Shown here in pieces: positions 28,812 to 64,000 of a stretch of DNA of 64,000 bases. The DNA lies in assembly GCA_027622665.1 (NCBI GenBank), contig JAQBYT010000015.1:18178-82177 (forward strand). Reading direction: 5' to 3'. The DNA is from Verrucomicrobiota bacterium (GTDB taxonomy: Bacteria; Verrucomicrobiota; Verrucomicrobiia; Opitutales; Seribacteraceae). Under the pieces are notes generated by a model. That model was not told the origin of the DNA, did not search any database, and was given only the letters and a program-made list of their open reading frames with translations. Numbering within the stretch: the first letter of the stretch is position 1; every line of letters begins with the position of its first letter. Made by a program: the position numbers and the translations under genes.

Positions 28812-29630
28812 ATGAGTAACGAACCGCCCAAAGCCTACCGCAACGAACATTTCCTAAACAGTCACGAGGCACGCGCCATACGAGTGCAGTGCGAACTGAT
28901 CGAACCGGAACGCAGGTTACTTGAAAACGAGGTGAATAACACTCTGGTTTTCTTCGGTTCAGCTCGATCCAAAGACCCCGAGGTCGCCCAAAAGGAACTG
29001 GATTACTTGCTTGAAGATCTCCCCACTGAAACAGAGCGCACGCCCGAGCAAGTAGAAAAGTTAAGAAAGGCGGAACAAGTGGTGCGCCTATCCAAGTACT
29101 ACGGGGAGGCGGTCGAACTATCCAGGATGCTCACCGAATGGTCCCTCAAGATTCGGGATGCCGACCAGCAATTCCTCGTTTGCTCGGGGGGAGGCCCCGG
29201 CATGATGGAAGCCGCCAACAAGGGAGCACACGAAGCGGGCGGGAAATCAATTGGCCTGGGAATCAGCCTGCCTTTCGAGCAAGGCGTAAATGAATTCGCG
29301 TCGCCTGAGCTATCATTCGAGTTCCACTATTTTTTCGTACGAAAGTTTTATTTTCTTTACCATGCAAAGGCTCTCATCGTGTTTCCCGGTGGTTTCGGGA
29401 CAATGGACGAACTATTTGAAACCCTCACTCTCATACAAACCCAAAAGCTCGGCAAAAAAATCCCCATCGTACTTTATGGGAAAGATTTCTGGGATGGCCT
29501 AATCAATTTCGAAAAGTACGCCGAATGGGGTGTCATTTCTCCCGGCGACCTTGAGCTTTTTCAAATTGTCGACGACGTGCAAACGGCTTACGACCTAGTG
29601 CTCGAGGGCATTAAACCTTACTACCTCTAA
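28812..29630 (+). CDS. LOG family (nucleotide monophosphate phosphoribohydrolase / Rossmann-fold) protein
   Basis: FFGSAR, GGGPGMMEAANKGA, YFFVRK, PGGFGTMDE. Confidence 0.9.
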   Translation: MSNEPPKAYRNEHFLNSHEARAIRVQCELIEPERRLLENEVNNTLVFFGSARSKDPEVAQKELDYLLEDLPTETERTPEQVEKLRKAEQVVRLSKYYGEAVELSRMLTEWSLKIRDADQQFLVCSGGGPGMMEAANKGAHEAGGKSIGLGISLPFEQGVNEFASPELSFEFHYFFVRKFYFLYHAKALIVFPGGFGTMDELFETLTLIQTQKLGKKIPIVLYGKDFWDGLINFEKYAEWGVISPGDLELFQIVDDVQTAYDLVLEGIKPYYL

Positions 29631-31948
29631 TCGGCGCGGGCCCGCACTTGAGATAAAAAAGCTTTGGCCTGTGGGTTTCCGGGCATGAGTTGGACCACAC
29701 TTTCGGCAAATGGGAGGGCATCCTTCCAGCGGTTTTCTTGGCCGTAGAGTTGAGCCAAGGCTTGAGGGAACTCGGGATTTGCAGGTTCTAACTTGTAGGC
29801 GACTTTAATTGCCGACGCGGCCTTTTCCCTTTGCTCCAATTGCCAATACGCCACGCCTAGGTTGAAATGAATTCTTGGGTTTTCCGGCATAATGGAGGCA
29901 GCCCGAGACAAGCGTTGGGCAGCTTCGTCTAGGCGATTTTGGTCCTCGGCCAAAAGGAGTCCGAGGGAGTAGTGTCCTTGCCCCCAATCCGGCTCAAGAC
30001 GGACGACTTGGCGAAGAAGCTTTTCCGCCTCTCGATTGCGCCCTCTTTGATTAAGCAGGGTTGCAAGATTCATTCGAGCCGGAACAAAGGTTTCCTCCCT
30101 CTCTATGGCAGCTTTGTAGTAGCGTTCGGCATCCCGAGGATTCCCTTGGTTTTCGGCGAGGTTACCAAGAGAAAGGTTGGCCTCGGGGCGATCGAGGTTG
30201 CTCAAGAAGCGAGCCTTCAGTTCACGGAATGCTATGTCGAACTGCTTCTTTTCCTCCGGAGTAAAAATATGAGAAGGAAGACGAGAAAGTACTCGCGCTG
30301 CCTCTGTCCGAACGGAAAGAATCGGGTCTTTCAGTATAGGGCCCAGAGTCTGCTTCAGTTCGTTGTCGGGAAGATTCTCAAGAGTGTTGACCGCGGCAAC
30401 TCGCATGATGGGATTAGGATCAGTGGTGCGCACGCGAGCCTCGGCAAAGCTGGCGGGGCTAAGAAAACTTCGTAGGGCCAGCAAGGCTCCGGATCTACTG
30501 AAGACAGGCGACTCCAGGTCACGAACAGTACCCAAAAGAAGTTTCTCCGCCTCGGGCTTGCGATTGCGGAATGCATGAAAGGCCTCGGGGTGACGCACTT
30601 CCCGAGGACGATCCGGCCCCTTGAACTCTTCCACCTTTGCCGCGGCCCAAGCTGCGTCTTTGTCATCGTGGCAGCGGTTGCAGGCGTTGGGGGTGCCGTA
30701 CTTAACACTGAGATCGGGACGGGGAATACGGATGCTGTGGTCGCGCCTCGGGTCCACCACCATGTAGGTCTTTTCCGGCATATGGCACTCCACGCATTGA
30801 GCTCCTTTGGATCCCATTGGATGGAAATGGTGGGCAGGCGAATCATAGAGCGTAGGATTGTCGGGTTTCGGCAAATGACAACGCATGCATAGCTGGTTGC
30901 CTTTGACGTAAGTTCGAGCGGTGTGCGGGTCGTGACAATCCGCGCACTTTACGCCCTTGTGGAACATCTTGCTTTGGATAAAAGATCCGAAGACATAGAC
31001 CTCATCGTCGATTTGACCGTCCACGTGATAGGTCGGAGCGCTCATGCCGGGGGCCCACGGTTGGGCGACCTCGGGAAGAAAATGATCGAGAAACCTCGAA
31101 CCGACGTGATGTCCGGGATGCACGAATCCGCGACGAGCGTGGCACTTTGCGCAGGACTCGACCTGAAGCTTGTTGGAACTGTTTACGTCGGCGAGTCCGT
31201 AGTGGGTCATGCCCTGCCAACCATTATCCGCCTTCGCCATTTCCACATGCTTGCGACCGGGGCCATGGCAAGCTTCACAGGCAACGGTCATCTCGGAATA
31301 AGAAGTGGTGAACTTTCGTGTTTTGGGATCATATCCCTTGCGCAGGTTGGTCGAATGGCAGTCGGCGCACATGTGATCCCAGTTCTGCATGGAGCGAGTC
31401 CAAAAGAGAGGATCGTTGGGCTTGATGTGTTCGTCGGTATAAATGTGATACCATTGTTTGCCCTCGACGTCCCAGCAAGTGGGCAAGACCTGCATGCGAC
31501 CATCGGGAAATTGGACGAGGTATTGCTGCAGAGGTTCCCAACCGAAAGTGTGCTTCACTTGAAAAGTTTCCATTTCACCCTTCTGGTTTTCCGTTTCCAC
31601 CATGTACTTGTCTCCTTCCCGAAAAAAACGAGAAAAGACGCCGTAACGCTCGAAAGTGGTGTTGTTGAAATCGCCACGCACAGTTTCAGGCGTAGGTAAC
31701 TCCATGGCATGGAAGTGATGAGAACCGCGCCACTTCTCGTGCTGCTCCGCATGGCATTGAACACAGGTCGAGACACCGACGTACTCGTCGAGACGAGGGT
31801 CTCCAATCGAGTCAACTGATCGGCCCGTAGAATTTGAGACCGAACCGTCGCCGCATGAGGAAAGTAACCACAGCACCCCAAGGAGCAGAGCCACGGGAAA
31901 TATCGATGAAATTAGTTTTAGTCTATATCTCACTAAATCATTAAGCAT
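29627..31948 (-). CDS. Multiheme (8 CxxCH) cytochrome c lipoprotein with HEAT/TPR repeats
   Basis: Lipobox LLSSC; CVQCH, CADCH, CEACH, CAKCH, CADCH, CMRCH, CVECH, CNRCH; DHSIRIPRP; C-terminal TPRs. Confidence 0.9.
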   Translation of the reverse strand: MLNDLVRYRLKLISSIFPVALLLGVLWLLSSCGDGSVSNSTGRSVDSIGDPRLDEYVGVSTCVQCHAEQHEKWRGSHHFHAMELPTPETVRGDFNNTTFERYGVFSRFFREGDKYMVETENQKGEMETFQVKHTFGWEPLQQYLVQFPDGRMQVLPTCWDVEGKQWYHIYTDEHIKPNDPLFWTRSMQNWDHMCADCHSTNLRKGYDPKTRKFTTSYSEMTVACEACHGPGRKHVEMAKADNGWQGMTHYGLADVNSSNKLQVESCAKCHARRGFVHPGHHVGSRFLDHFLPEVAQPWAPGMSAPTYHVDGQIDDEVYVFGSFIQSKMFHKGVKCADCHDPHTARTYVKGNQLCMRCHLPKPDNPTLYDSPAHHFHPMGSKGAQCVECHMPEKTYMVVDPRRDHSIRIPRPDLSVKYGTPNACNRCHDDKDAAWAAAKVEEFKGPDRPREVRHPEAFHAFRNRKPEAEKLLLGTVRDLESPVFSRSGALLALRSFLSPASFAEARVRTTDPNPIMRVAAVNTLENLPDNELKQTLGPILKDPILSVRTEAARVLSRLPSHIFTPEEKKQFDIAFRELKARFLSNLDRPEANLSLGNLAENQGNPRDAERYYKAAIEREETFVPARMNLATLLNQRGRNREAEKLLRQVVRLEPDWGQGHYSLGLLLAEDQNRLDEAAQRLSRAASIMPENPRIHFNLGVAYWQLEQREKAASAIKVAYKLEPANPEFPQALAQLYGQENRWKDALPFAESVVQLMPGNPQAKAFLSQVRARAD

Positions 31949-32120: not shown

Positions 32121-32954
32121 ATGAGCGCGATTTACATCTCTAAAAACGGACAGCAACTCGGACCATACTCAGTCGAGCAAATAAACGAAATGCTCGAGCA
32201 ACAACAGGCTCTACTTACTGATGACGCCTGGATGGAAGGCATGCAAGGATGGGAACCCATAAACTCCGAGGCTTTTGCTGATCTCGAAATCGGTCAAAGC
32301 GCAGCGAGCGATACAGCAGAGGTGTCTACTCAGCCTAGTCAAGCCCCAACGCAAGCTTCCTCCGCTCTGGTGGAAACTGCGGTTCCCACCGGCGGAGGAA
32401 GTTTTAGCATCGGAGACTCGTTGTCCGAAGGTTTTGGTTTTTTCAAGGCGAATGCCGGGGCGAGCATTTTGTTCGTATTAATTAGCGGAGTCGTAGGAGC
32501 AATTCCTTTCGTCGGAGCTCTTCTCATGCCTTTAATGTCAATCAATTTCATGGCTGGAGTTAAAAGGTATCGAAACAACGCTACCCCATTTGAAATGGGC
32601 CAACTTTTCGACTTCTCCCATGCCGTCGATAAAATCGTTGGGGCATTGGTTGTAGGAATTTTAATCATGATCGGAATGATCTTTCTAATTGTGCCCGGAA
32701 TTATTCTCGCCCTCATGTGGGCCTTCCTTTACTGCGTTTTGGCGGATCGACCGGGAACGTCTTTCACCGAAGCGATGAAGATTTCGGCGGCAGTCACAAA
32801 GGGAAATCGCTTCTCAATATTCCTATTTATGATCGTTTGCTCTTTGCTGGCCTTTGTCAGCATGATTCCTTTGGGTCTCGGACTACTCGTTACGATTCCC
32901 ATGATTCAAGCCGCCATGTACTGCGCTTACGAAAGCTGCAAAGGGAACTCGTAA
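32121..32954 (+). CDS. GYF_2 (DUF4339) domain membrane protein
   Basis: IYISKNGQQLGPYS...AWMEGMQGW, followed by a multi-TM domain (LIVPGIIL...AMKISAAVTKGN). Confidence 0.8.
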   Translation: MSAIYISKNGQQLGPYSVEQINEMLEQQQALLTDDAWMEGMQGWEPINSEAFADLEIGQSAASDTAEVSTQPSQAPTQASSALVETAVPTGGGSFSIGDSLSEGFGFFKANAGASILFVLISGVVGAIPFVGALLMPLMSINFMAGVKRYRNNATPFEMGQLFDFSHAVDKIVGALVVGILIMIGMIFLIVPGIILALMWAFLYCVLADRPGTSFTEAMKISAAVTKGNRFSIFLFMIVCSLLAFVSMIPLGLGLLVTIPMIQAAMYCAYESCKGNS

Positions 32955-33004: not shown

Positions 33005-35563
33005 TCAGCGAGTGCCGTTAGCGTTCTCCGGTTTCTCTCTATAGGCCATCCTTTCGGCGCGAGCAGAGTAGCATTCCCCCAGCATCTGGCCTCGGGGCTT
33101 GAGGTTCCCCGACTCGAAATCGATTTCCTCGGAAGACTTTCCTTCTTCCTGCAAAAGACGACCTTCGAGCGATTCTTGATCCTCCTCGGATTCATCGGCG
33201 GACAGATGAGTCATGGGGTAACCCTCTGCCGCGAGCAACCTGCCCACCAGTATCGCTCGGTGGCAGGTAAGTGGATCTTTCTCTGCGCAGAACAAGGCGA
33301 TTCTATACTTGGCGGCTCCTTTGCGCAGTCGGTCTAGCCCATCGGCAAAGGCGGGAACCTTTTCAATTAGGTCGTAGCGAGCGACGCCGTCCAAGTAGCA
33401 TTCCGATTCCTCTCGCCGGGCCCCCAGTTCCTTTCCGAGAAAAACATAAAGTAGACCGGCGGATTCGAGAAAAGTCTTCAAGGGATCACGGGAATAAGAA
33501 GGTTCACGTTTCGAGTAAGGTTGTGACCGTAAGTCTGCCACTGCCTCAATGTCTTTTGCCTTTAGAATTTCGATAAACCGCTCGATCGCCAACCCCGCAT
33601 AACCGATCGTGTAGATCATGGGGAGTGATGAGGAGGTCTCAGGTTCAGAGGGAATGACCTCCAATTCTTCGAACTCGGCTTCGTCGACTGTTCCGGCATT
33701 TGGTTCCACCTCTAATTCCATTCGCCATCGCGCCAATATTTCGAGGACGCCCTTACCGTACTTCCGCACCTTCGCCTGGCCGATCCCTTTGACCGCCAGG
33801 AGTGCTTCCTCGTTTTGAGGAAGACTGGCTGCCATTCCGCGAAGAGTCGCATCCGAAAAGACCTGATAGGGTCTAACTCTTCCCGTTCTGGCGCGTGCCA
33901 CGCGAAACTCGCGCAACTCCTCGAACACCTGCTCGCGAAGGTGTTCGGGGGTAACTGCTTCCGGAATATCCTCAACAGTCTGCTCACCGTATCGCCTTCC
34001 GCCTTTCTTCTCCGAGACCTTTCGAGTAAGAAATAATTTAGCTTCGAATGACCCAGCAAGAAAAGCAGGTGCCTTCGCACCAAGACCGAGAACGGTGAAC
34101 TTCTTTTCCTCGTCGATGTAACGCGACTCGAGAAGTTCCTGCCCGAGGAGCTGGTCGATGACGTTTCGGATTTCGGGCTGTTTGTAATCCCTCAATGCGC
34201 CGTGACTCTCGAGCTGATCGTGCCCAAAGCGACGCACCTTGTCGGTATCGCCTCCACGAAGCACCGTGGCCACTTGCAATGTTCCGAAGCGTTCTCCAAG
34301 ATCGCTTACGCAACGAAGCACGCTCAACGCCACCTCGTGACCGTTCGCCATTTCGGGTAGTTCCGCGAGGCACACGTCGCAGGCCCCGCACGATCCCGGT
34401 TCCAAGTCCTGCCCGAAGTAACGAACCAGAAAACGATGGCGGCATTGCGACCCGGAACTAAACCGATAGGTCTCGGAAAGACGAGAAAGAGAAGGCTCCA
34501 ACTCAGGGGAACCTTCACTTAAGCTCTTCTCCACAATAAACTTCCACAAGGCGAAATCCGCTCCCGAATAAAGCAGGATGCACTCCGCGGGGTCACCGTC
34601 ACGCCCAGCCCTCCCCGATTCCTGAGCAAAGTGCTCTATGGATTTCGGCATGCGAGCGTGCAGAACATAGCGCACGTCCGTGCGATCGATGCCCATGCCG
34701 AAAGCCACCGTCGCCACCACCACCCGGCACTCGTCCGACATGAAGGCATCTTGTACGCGAGATCGATCCGAGCTCGCCATCTCGCCGTGATAGGCCAATG
34801 CGTTCACACCTTGCGCCTGTAGTTTCTCTGCCAGTGCGACCGTATCCTTGCGGCGGATGGCGTAAACGATGCCCGCATCTTTGGGATTACGCCGAACGAC
34901 GGAAAGAATTTGGTCGAATCCGTCTCCCTGACGGGGATAGAATTTGTAGGTCAGGTTCGGTCTATCCACAGACCCGATCACCAGTACCGAATCCCTCATT
35001 CGAAGACGCTCCCGTATATCCTCGATTACCCTTGGAGTGGCAGTGGCCGTACAAGCGAAAAAAGGTATTTCCGACCAACGATCGCGCAATTCCCCCAAGG
35101 CGAGGTAATCGGAGCGGAAGTCATGCCCCCACTGGCTTATACAATGAGCCTCGTCGACGATGACCATACCGATTTCCAATCCCGAGACCAATTCCTCGAA
35201 ACCTTCGCCGCGTACCCGCTCTGGCGTCACGTACAGCATGGAAAGTTCTCCGCCTCGCAAACGTCGTAAAGCCTCTCCCCGCGAAGCCGCATCCTGAGAA
35301 CTGGCCAGCATTTCTGCAGCGACACCGTTGAGCTTGAGTCCATCCACCTGATCCTTCATCAGAGAAAGGAGAGGAGATATTACCAGATTCAGCTTCCCAT
35401 TGCAGATGGACGGTGTCTGAAAACAGAGGCTTTTCCCTCCTCCTGTGGGTAAGACAAGCAACACGTCGCGACCCGACAGGGTCGTCTCTATAGCCTCCTT
35501 TTGGTTTGGGTAGAGACGGTCGAAACCCCAAGTTTTGCGAACGATGTCGAGATAGTTTTGCAT
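33005..35563 (-). CDS. recQ: RecQ-family DNA helicase (helicase-Zn-RQC-HRDC) fused to C-terminal DUF488 domain
   Basis: PTGGGKSLCFQ, DEAHCISQWGHDFR, ATVAFGMGID, QESGRAGRDG, Zn site CRH...CGACDVC, HRDC (PYQVFSDATL...VKGIGQAK). From 33619: IYTIGY...DLRSQPYS...LGKELGAR...LFCAEKDPLTCHR. Start ATG 35563 preferred over the track's TTG 35629. Confidence 0.9.
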   Translation of the reverse strand: MQNYLDIVRKTWGFDRLYPNQKEAIETTLSGRDVLLVLPTGGGKSLCFQTPSICNGKLNLVISPLLSLMKDQVDGLKLNGVAAEMLASSQDAASRGEALRRLRGGELSMLYVTPERVRGEGFEELVSGLEIGMVIVDEAHCISQWGHDFRSDYLALGELRDRWSEIPFFACTATATPRVIEDIRERLRMRDSVLVIGSVDRPNLTYKFYPRQGDGFDQILSVVRRNPKDAGIVYAIRRKDTVALAEKLQAQGVNALAYHGEMASSDRSRVQDAFMSDECRVVVATVAFGMGIDRTDVRYVLHARMPKSIEHFAQESGRAGRDGDPAECILLYSGADFALWKFIVEKSLSEGSPELEPSLSRLSETYRFSSGSQCRHRFLVRYFGQDLEPGSCGACDVCLAELPEMANGHEVALSVLRCVSDLGERFGTLQVATVLRGGDTDKVRRFGHDQLESHGALRDYKQPEIRNVIDQLLGQELLESRYIDEEKKFTVLGLGAKAPAFLAGSFEAKLFLTRKVSEKKGGRRYGEQTVEDIPEAVTPEHLREQVFEELREFRVARARTGRVRPYQVFSDATLRGMAASLPQNEEALLAVKGIGQAKVRKYGKGVLEILARWRMELEVEPNAGTVDEAEFEELEVIPSEPETSSSLPMIYTIGYAGLAIERFIEILKAKDIEAVADLRSQPYSKREPSYSRDPLKTFLESAGLLYVFLGKELGARREESECYLDGVARYDLIEKVPAFADGLDRLRKGAAKYRIALFCAEKDPLTCHRAILVGRLLAAEGYPMTHLSADESEEDQESLEGRLLQEEGKSSEEIDFESGNLKPRGQMLGECYSARAERMAYREKPENANGTR

Positions 35564-35769
35564 GGATTGTTTAAGGGGACTTTCTTCCGAAAGCTTTGTC
35601 GGCAAGTCAAGGTAAAGGACTATTGCCAAGACTTTCCTTTGAAGTCTACTTATTAGCCATGTTTAGCAGACTCATTATTGCCGTACTCTCAACAGTGTGT
35701 GGAAACCTCTTCACAACCCAAAAGGCAATCAGGTAATCCTGAACTTAGTTTAATATCTCTCGCACATCT

Positions 35770-62846: not shown

Positions 62847-63258
62847 CTATCGCGCTCGTAGAGTCGTCAACAAAAGTCATTAAATCTGACGCTGGACCGT
62901 AGAGCATCAGATCTTTTTCAGCACGCAGCAACTGCTGCCGAATACCATCGTAATAGCCTTGGTAATTAATGATAATAAGCGGCACTTGATGCGAACCAAT
63001 TTGACGCTCAACCGCAATTTCCCACAATTCTTCCCAAGTGCCTGGTCCACCTGGCAATGCAATAAAACCATTAATGTCTTTTGCTAATAAACGTTTTCGC
63101 TCACGCATGGTATCAACCACTATCATTTCATGCAAATGGCTATGATGCAAATTGTCGTCAACAAATTTTTGTAAAATAACTCCCTCAATCCTTCCGCCAG
63201 CTTTAAGACAAGCATCATTAAGCGCACCCATGCAGCCCGTGCGCCCTGCGCCAAAAAT
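62847..63258 (-). pseudogene. LOG family protein fragment truncated at both ends
   Basis: IFGAGRTGCMG...MRERK...LPGGPGTWEE. The N-terminal beta-strand/GS motif is absent, and the C-terminus runs into the neighbouring gene in a different frame. Confidence 0.7.
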
Positions 63259-63307
63259 CGAGTCTGAGATTAAAAAAACACGAGCTAAAAATGTAGAAGA
63301 GAACTAG

Positions 63308-63328
63308 AGTGAGTTTATACAACTCACT
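63308..63328 (-). terminator. Hairpin after the glycosyltransferase stop
   Basis: AGTGAGTT-N5-AACTCACT perfect 8-bp stem followed by pyrimidine-rich sequence on the minus strand. Confidence 0.5.
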
Positions 63329-64000
63329 TAAAGACCATTTATAATACCAATAAAAGCTCTATAGTTATCATTTGAATTAACATTATTGGCCCAGTTTTTC
63401 CTCGCGTTCTCCCGTATAAGAGCGTCACCATATTTGTGTTTATAGAATTTCTTAAAATCTATGGCCAAACTCTCTGGAGTTAAGTGCAAATTTAATAATT
63501 TACCATTCTCATCATTAACAAGTTCACTTACGCCCCCACAGTCAGTCGCATATACTGGAACTCCAAAGGATAAAGCTTCCATAATTGAGACAGGAAGCCC
63601 TTCGGAAAGACTAACATTACAAAATAAATCAACTGGATTCATCTTGTAATAGTCCATAACTTCTGAGTTTGTAACTCGCCCCTTAAAATTGAACAAAATA
63701 TTATTTGAAAAACCTGAAGAGATTTTCAATAAACTCGCTCTCGAACTATTATCCCCATCACCAAAATGTGTCCACTGAATATGAATTGAATCAATCAACA
63801 AAAGAGATTTAGCAAGAAGATCAACTCTCTTTACACTTAGAAGATTGGAGCACGTTACAATCCGAAATATACCATCCCTTGAAGGTTTTGAATCACCTCT
63901 CTCTGGAACGCCCAGTTTCGAAATACTATATTTATTATAATATTGAGGAAATAATTTTAAGAAATAATTTTTTCCATGTTCAGTTATGAATATGGCCTGT
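63328..64000 (-). CDS. Glycosyltransferase family 4 (GT-B), 5' part outside the window
   Basis: Open frame to the window end (RIVTCSNLLSVKRVD...); SLSEGLPVSIMEALSFGVPVYATDCGG (EX7E); strongly AT-rich. Confidence 0.88.
   Translation of the reverse strand, partial: QAIFITEHGKNYFLKLFPQYYNKYSISKLGVPERGDSKPSRDGIFRIVTCSNLLSVKRVDLLAKSLLLIDSIHIQWTHFGDGDNSSRASLLKISSGFSNNILFNFKGRVTNSEVMDYYKMNPVDLFCNVSLSEGLPVSIMEALSFGVPVYATDCGGVSELVNDENGKLLNLHLTPESLAIDFKKFYKHKYGDALIRENARKNWANNVNSNDNYRAFIGIINGL

Follow-up and report, generated by a model that had tools for sequence, protein, structure and literature searches.

The gene described here lies in a stretch of 64,000 nucleotides from the genome of a Verrucomicrobiota bacterium (GenBank assembly GCA_027622665.1, contig JAQBYT010000015.1, positions 18,178 to 82,177 of the forward strand), referred to below as the window. 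It encodes a complete RecQ helicase that runs without a stop into a C-terminal DUF488 domain. The fusion is real, and the DUF488 domain is under purifying selection. It belongs to the type listed by PADLOC as gene B (long DUF488) of the candidate system PDC-M45, whose genes A and C encode DuOB (PF22557) and a short DUF488 protein, respectively. We propose, at somewhat under even odds (about 0.45), that the M45B domain, predicted to be phosphatase-like, would clear a blocking phosphate from DNA ends unwound by the attached RecQ, with the helicase replacing DuOB. The features of the gene, in window coordinates, are listed below; dN/dS denotes the ratio of non-synonymous to synonymous substitution rates.

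33005..35563, minus strand: recQ-DUF488 fusion gene, 852 amino acids (aa), ATG start, TAA stop, one open frame without internal stop
34595..35509, minus strand: RecQ helicase core, DEAD at residues 19-182 and Helicase_C at 219-323 (Pfam; TIGR00614)
34022..34561, minus strand: RecQ Zn-binding region (335-399) and RQC winged helix (403-514) (Pfam)
33734..33934, minus strand: HRDC domain, 544-610 (Pfam)
33620..33727, minus strand: acidic, variable linker, 613-648 (translation; mean dN/dS 0.23)
33008..33619, minus strand: DUF488 domain of the PDC-M45B type, 649-852, predicted phosphatase-like alpha/beta fold (PF04343, PDC-M45B, model)
33257..33289, minus strand: predicted catalytic loop C759-A-E761-K-D-P-L-T-C767-H768-R769, from strand end to helix start (alignment, model)
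33116..33127, minus strand: E-I-D-F, 813-816, degenerate clamp-motif-like remnant without Gln, in a loop that holds Q-x-x-L-F or D-L-F in relatives

The preliminary description of this DNA had read an uninterrupted passage from RecQ through an acidic linker into a DUF488 part opening with MIYTIGY at 33619, and this was confirmed as a single 852 aa frame in which all the Pfam domains are found. DEAD, Helicase_C, RecQ_Zn_bind, RQC and HRDC follow in this order, each above its Pfam cut-off, giving the layout of a RecQ family helicase (superfamily 2 core, Zn-binding region, RQC, HRDC). GGGKS, DEAH, QWGHDFR and QESGRAGRDG are visible in the translated core and are, on established knowledge, presumably RecQ helicase motifs. 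The protein scored 429.5 bits against the RecQ subfamily model TIGR00614 (NCBIfam; cut-off 219.8). It shares the helicase, Zn, RQC and HRDC regions with bacterial RecQ but differs in carrying about 240 aa beyond a plain RecQ and in staying below the cut-off of the RecQ equivalog TIGR01389 (595.3 versus 640.2 bits). The earlier statement that RecQ normally ends at HRDC needs softening, since many RecQ matches carry HTH_40. The C-terminus was matched to DUF488 by Pfam (PF04343, residues 660-775, E 3.9e-21, 76.3 bits versus a cut-off of 22.2), and the signatures previously named for it are all present (TIG, D677xR679, ELG and C759-x-E761-x5-C767-H768-R769). Databases list the fusion protein as a plain RecQ, with PF04343 precomputed, and the cluster representative P0003 begins at the same Met as the window protein. 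In its genome, G000 (93.5% complete), neither a RecQ nor a DUF488 was found apart from the fusion. The DpdF helicase of the Dpd system was rejected as an identity: NF041063 gave 204 bits where 550 are required, and the PADLOC matches to DpdF were confined to the RecQ part, with other RecQs matched equally. An element CCTTGACT at about 35600-35615 on the minus strand, upstream of the start, is kept in 6/6 sequences compared, the divergent one included, and is possibly a promoter -35 element.

Near the junction, neither a stop nor a frameshift was found, and contigs from two DNA runs, each of a different study, cross it without a gap (X10 record 4; X11 record 9), the latter being near-identical to the window and possibly the source of this DNA. 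Position 33619 is bridged by contigs of two RNA libraries (X15 records 15 and 16; X16 record 25), which suggests transcription across the junction, with carry-over of DNA into these libraries being possible. Met649 is replaced by Val in G011 and is not preceded by a Shine-Dalgarno-like run, and hence is not a conserved internal start. The concern that the fusion might be unique to this assembly or split in relatives was removed, as it is fused in relatives wherever a contig reaches the junction. An artefact of assembly or gene calling, or a pair of genes with translation restarting at Met649, which falls where stand-alone relatives start, is almost certainly the wrong explanation and was rejected, given that contigs of other studies and the relatives are all in frame and that Met649 is not kept and lacks a ribosome-binding-like run.

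DUF488 was found in 6 of the 76 genomes of the family, and the same six hold the RecQ type of the window at 80-97% identity. Complete frames of 870-888 aa are present in G000, G003, G005 and G011; in G006 and G004, HRDC is joined to DUF488 on short contigs, and a second G004 fragment is cut inside DUF488. Among 14 metagenome loci, 7 are close relatives, and the five that reach the junction are all fused (5/5), one of them matching G005. The locus L061, from an uncultured Opitutae bacterium, has the same fusion; it was not counted as a further case and points to a place for the fusion in marine Opitutae. Where labelled, the sequencing runs holding this DNA are marine, estuarine or aquatic. In a sample of the order (401 genomes), M45B matches were obtained in 16, with a long frame only in three fusion genomes. 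The same cytochrome-TPR gene adjoins the fusion gene in both genera, and the neighbourhood is one of housekeeping genes, among them groEL, dnaK, infB, nusA, leuB and alaS.

The plain RecQs closest to the fused RecQ are 43-50% identical to it and, where named, mostly from Planctomycetota; DUF488 was present in 0/117 of the nearest non-fused RecQ clusters. Within the family, the plain RecQ that other genera carry is just 35-38% identical to the fused one. Topology tests of RecQ were performed on an LG+G4 quick tree with 24 of 51 rows, after removal of 26 plain RecQs and the long row L057, and the groups were named after the first (quick) tree of all 51 rows had been viewed. Orthology of the fused RecQ with the plain RecQ of the family was rejected (approximately unbiased test, p-AU 2e-5). 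Because a single grouping is rejected and identity is only 35-38%, the fused RecQ represents a separate lineage, perhaps an acquired one. RecQ is patchy in the family, with about 20 genomes holding a different, plain RecQ and many without a RecQ-level match, some of them more than 90% complete (G007, G010, G015).

The DUF488 domain matches PDC-M45B (PDLC04657) with E 1.7e-61 over positions 6-198 of the 204-position profile and groups with M45B in the domain tree. Two earlier statements have to be revised in this light. DUF488 had been called usually stand-alone; the subtype in the window is gene B of PDC-M45, and among the best 80 of 587 confirmed genome loci, with counts taken over the 79 other than L061, M45B is accompanied by a second DUF488 (M45C) in 71 and by DuOB in 67. 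The gene had also been put forward as a new system, whereas this DUF488 subtype is already catalogued by PADLOC. In the four fusion genomes G000, G003, G005 and G011 (84-96% complete), neither DuOB (PF22557; 0/4) nor M45C (PF22751; 0/4) was found, the control G025 being positive for both, and local profile searches of G000 also detected neither. Each fusion genome has one DUF488, except G004 with its two fragments. The window gene thus resembles PDC-M45 in that its C-terminal domain is M45B over almost the entire profile but differs in several respects: gene B is joined to RecQ, neither A nor C was found, the surroundings are of the housekeeping kind and the clamp-like motif is degenerate. DUF488 as a whole is very large, with 6348 cluster representatives matched by the domain at E 0.001. 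Phage records gave 8 weak matches (25-29%), and 110 plasmid records had matches, the best at 41%. In the M45 operon of G025, complete in other respects, the DuOB gene (L169:3057-3922, minus strand) lies in two overlapping frames, owing to a frameshift or an assembly error. A PDC-M19A-like DUF488 fusion protein is encoded in G036, of the same order (L008:1039-1923, plus strand; E 2e-101).

In the AlphaFold2 model of the DUF488 domain (predicted local distance difference test score, pLDDT, 96), C759 closes a strand and H768-R769 opens the helix that follows, an arrangement that would resemble that of cysteine phosphatases of the protein tyrosine and dual-specificity types (PTP/DSP). Structural matches included the laforin phosphatase domain (Z 8.3, root-mean-square deviation 3.4, 131 aligned) and KAP (Z 8.2), a Z of about 8 being near the background of the tool, and the best Foldseek rows were mostly PTP/DSP enzymes, none of which reached E 0.001. 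From the model, a cysteine phosphatase-like alpha/beta fold is predicted. Burroughs and Aravind are said to have grouped PTP/DSP-type and tetrapyrrole methylase folds in a rhodanese-phosphatase superfamily in 2023, and some members of its DUF488 clade (RapZ-C/DUF488/DUF4326) were reportedly predicted by them to process DNA ends. The window domain is like this clade in that its predicted fold matches both PTP/DSP and tetrapyrrole methylase domains, and unlike it in its C-x9-R loop with a second Cys and a His. Searches by sequence for solved relatives gave nothing below E 0.5, and the ESM Atlas gave no usable match beyond DUF488 families. Cysteine phosphotransfer is described for the rhodanese-phosphatase superfamily in PMC9503650. 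The E. coli DUF488-like gene yeaO has no literature according to bioRxiv 10.1101/2024.05.24.595836, and no tested DUF488 activity was found in the literature searched.

The Cys, His and Arg residues previously singled out as catalytic-looking proved to be invariant across the DUF488 family and kept in the window: C, C, H and R of the loop are the same in 108/108 aligned sequences, and the invariant G654, D677, R679, C759, C767, H768 and R769 are all retained. Between pairs of close relatives, which are not independent, mean dN/dS was lowest in the helicase core (0.036), followed by RQC and HRDC (about 0.06) and the DUF488 core (0.14, over 28 pairs), and highest in the linker (0.23). Among 11 close sequences, family-conserved sites vary in 2/35 cases versus 65/163 for other sites (p 5e-5). 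P0004, sister to the degenerate copies of G011 and P0005, has intact residues; the linkers of P0004 and P0005 are strongly divergent in sequence.

The tails of the M45B family contain putative clamp-binding-like motifs. Of 268 distinct tails, 61 hold Q-x-x-[LM]-F (shuffle mean 2.4, maximum 8), 154 hold [SDE]-[LM]-F (shuffle mean 9.9) and 42 hold Q-phi-x-[LM]-F, while exact QL[SD]LF was found in 18 tails and in no core; kin are not independent in these counts. The clamp-binding consensus is Q-phi-x-L-F or Q-phi-x-L-x-L, which QL[SD]LF fits, and Gln is needed for binding, as stated in bioRxiv 10.64898/2026.05.27.728225. Alternatively, LF in the long forms may simply pack on the DUF488 domain, as this region is confidently folded in the model. 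Unlike clients of the DnaN sliding clamp, the window tail has neither form of the consensus; EI[DN]F is kept in 14/14 fused sequences.

A search for RecQ together with DUF488 in other genomes, as proposed in the preliminary description, yielded DUF488-RecQ proteins in addition to the 6 family genomes. These have the reverse order, DUF488-RecQ-HTH_40 with DUF488 at the N-terminus (P0008, named Anaerolineae by its source, P0009 and P0181). Moreover, RecQ is fused to DuOB beside M45B and M45C in 4 of the 79 other loci, as DuOB-RecQ in L094, L114 and L132 and as RecQ-HTH_40-DuOB in L109. As in the window, a complete RecQ is tied to the same DUF488 subtype in these operons and reverse fusions; the window differs in its C-terminal position of the domain and in having no DuOB or M45C. 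The linked RecQs of the M45 operons and the reverse-order proteins are 34-39% identical to the window RecQ and belong to two other clades, and in three linked genomes searched the linked RecQ was the sole match at E 1e-40. For the RecQ half, one clade of the window fusion and the reverse-order fusions was rejected (p-AU 7e-41), as was one clade of all linked RecQs (p-AU 2e-5). For the DUF488 half, one clade of both direct fusions was not rejected (p-AU 0.56), and these halves may share an origin. Judged by these comparisons, RecQ has become tied to the M45 module in no fewer than three separate lineages of RecQ and in four different domain orders. The Rosetta-stone argument made for the fusion therefore has real weight: the fusion is conserved, its residues are invariant and the link to RecQ recurs independently.

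RecQ is a helicase of 3' to 5' polarity that acts with RecJ to generate single-stranded 3' tails; such tails can prime repair synthesis only if they end in a 3'-OH, and protruding 3' ends are poor substrates for exonuclease III. According to the end-clearing mechanism proposed here, Cys759 would attack a terminal phosphate held by Arg769, and the substrate would most likely be a 3'-phosphate or a similar block on the single-stranded 3' tail made by RecQ and RecJ, which would serve recombinational repair. DuOB and the clamp peptide would normally bring M45B to DNA; in the fusion, RecQ would take over delivery of the enzyme from DuOB and partly from the clamp-binding tail, which would explain why DuOB, M45C and the clamp Gln are missing. 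The role would be in accessory genome maintenance and not essential. RecJ and Xth are present in 5/5 genomes, so that loss of xth or recJ as the cause of the fusion was rejected. No SOS box was found upstream of the gene in the window within 2 mismatches (best 3; best 2-4 in five relatives), the motif used being a putative Verrucomicrobia LexA box.

Several observations weigh against this mechanism. The activity and substrate proposed for the domain are putative, and a shared fold alone shows no function. Tetrapyrrole methylase domains tie with the phosphatases (Z 8.0-8.4, near background), no Foldseek match was obtained at E 0.001, and the loop from C759 to R769 is C-x9-R, not the C-x5-R of the classical PTP signature. 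The window tail, S-E-E-I-D-F, lacks the Gln that the clamp motif requires, and Xth, a known 3'-phosphatase, is present. The dN/dS of DUF488 is 2-4 times the helicase value, and G011 and P0005 carry P682H, R716C, E761H and R769S. In 75 of the 79 other M45B loci, no RecQ is present in the fetched flanks, and M45B is also fused to HsdS, a restriction-modification methylase, an SNF2 helicase and an unknown protein (L152). G007, a 97% complete genome of the same genus, has an empty site, where about 0.3 kb separates the flanking genes, and a RecQ was not found elsewhere in this genome either; the fusion gene is hence dispensable. Since M45B fuses to unrelated upstream genes and the residues are lost in two sisters, the coupling to unwinding remains inferred.

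The alternative that survives best, itself unlikely, is opportunistic read-through: an M45 operon landed behind recQ, the stop codon was lost and the other genes were deleted, leaving a domain that is independent of unwinding or slowly decaying. M45B is indeed often C-terminal on unrelated genes. It stands behind type I restriction specificity subunits in 8 proteins (P0006, P0007, P0044, P0045, P0156, P0160, P0161 and P0163), behind an Eco57I-type methylase in P0179, behind the unknown protein of L152 and behind an SNF2-type helicase in G706 (L151:4253-7711, minus strand), where M45C and DuOB follow and which would be a second helicase family joined to the M45 module. Most identified partners act on DNA, though, and RecQ was recruited repeatedly, in separate lineages and four domain orders, which speaks against chance read-through, as does purifying selection concentrated on the motif residues. 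The read-through account would agree with the degenerate motif in G011 and P0005, the loss of the gene in G007 and the lack of DUF488 in the 117 nearest non-fused RecQ clusters; P0004, sister to a degenerate copy, is nevertheless intact.

It is quite unlikely that the cysteines perform other lesion chemistry, for instance capture or cleavage of abasic sites in single strands exposed by unwinding, or that they make up a metal or redox site. Two invariant Cys together with His and Glu would suit such a role, and the Glu-to-His change in G011 and P0005 is compatible with it, but the invariant Arg and the strand-loop-helix position suit phosphate binding. G612 encodes AlkA_N and HhH-GPD glycosylase domains fused with another DUF488 subtype (L153:629-2524, plus strand), a base-excision-repair link for that subtype; this fusion lends some support to lesion chemistry, yet its DUF488 branches elsewhere in the domain tree.

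It is very unlikely that the fusion is a minimal anti-phage system, with RecQ opening up invading DNA whose ends the domain would then modify or destroy. The identity of the domain as the PADLOC candidate PDC-M45B, the fusion of relatives to restriction-modification subunits and the patchy distribution would be in keeping with defence. On the other hand, no defence genes were detected among the 28 larger window proteins scanned and the neighbours are housekeeping genes, the fusion occupies the same chromosomal site in two genera and is the only RecQ of its genome, and M45A and M45C were not found. No report of an anti-phage test of PDC-M45 was found in the literature searched; the main text of Payne et al. 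2024 is without M45 or DUF488, and its supplements may list the system.

Further observations concern the surroundings of the gene. A gene for a protein with GYF_2 and a membrane domain (window 32121-32954, plus strand) is convergent with the recQ fusion; it is absent along with recQ at the G007 site and is replaced in G011 by a sulfatase-like gene (named by eye). A multiheme cytochrome c, HEAT and TPR protein is encoded at 29627-31948 on the minus strand, with a 4-base overlap with a SLOG/LOG-family gene. At 63001-64000, the G+C content drops from about 0.52 to 0.36, possibly marking an island edge.

The component parts of the fusion are already known and catalogued in Pfam and PADLOC. New here are the direct, partner-free RecQ-M45B fusion, its reverse-order counterpart and the natural pair of intact and degenerate copies. 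No paper with both DUF488 and RecQ was found in the literature searched, and the search returned nothing relevant for PDC-M45, DuOB or RapZ-C; Burroughs and Aravind 2023 may show the architecture. A bolder reading, possible but doubtful, is that the fusion represents the smallest functional core of the widespread DuOB-DUF488-DUF488 module, a bacterial RecQ equipped with an end-healing enzyme of its own. DUF488-B would then be a new type of 3'-phosphatase for single-stranded DNA tails, delivered in most bacteria by DuOB and a sliding-clamp peptide and here by the helicase, so that DuOB, the second DUF488 and the Gln of the clamp motif would no longer be needed.

Only RecQ and the M45B enzyme are retained in this one polypeptide, which points to gene B as the component of importance once DNA has been unwound. 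The fusion also offers a one-gene test system, for which the reverse-order fusions and the pair of intact P0004 and degenerate P0005 are natural controls. Should the end-healing model be true, the domain would constitute a new enzyme class for bacterial recombinational repair, and the catalogued defence candidate PDC-M45 would shift towards genome maintenance.

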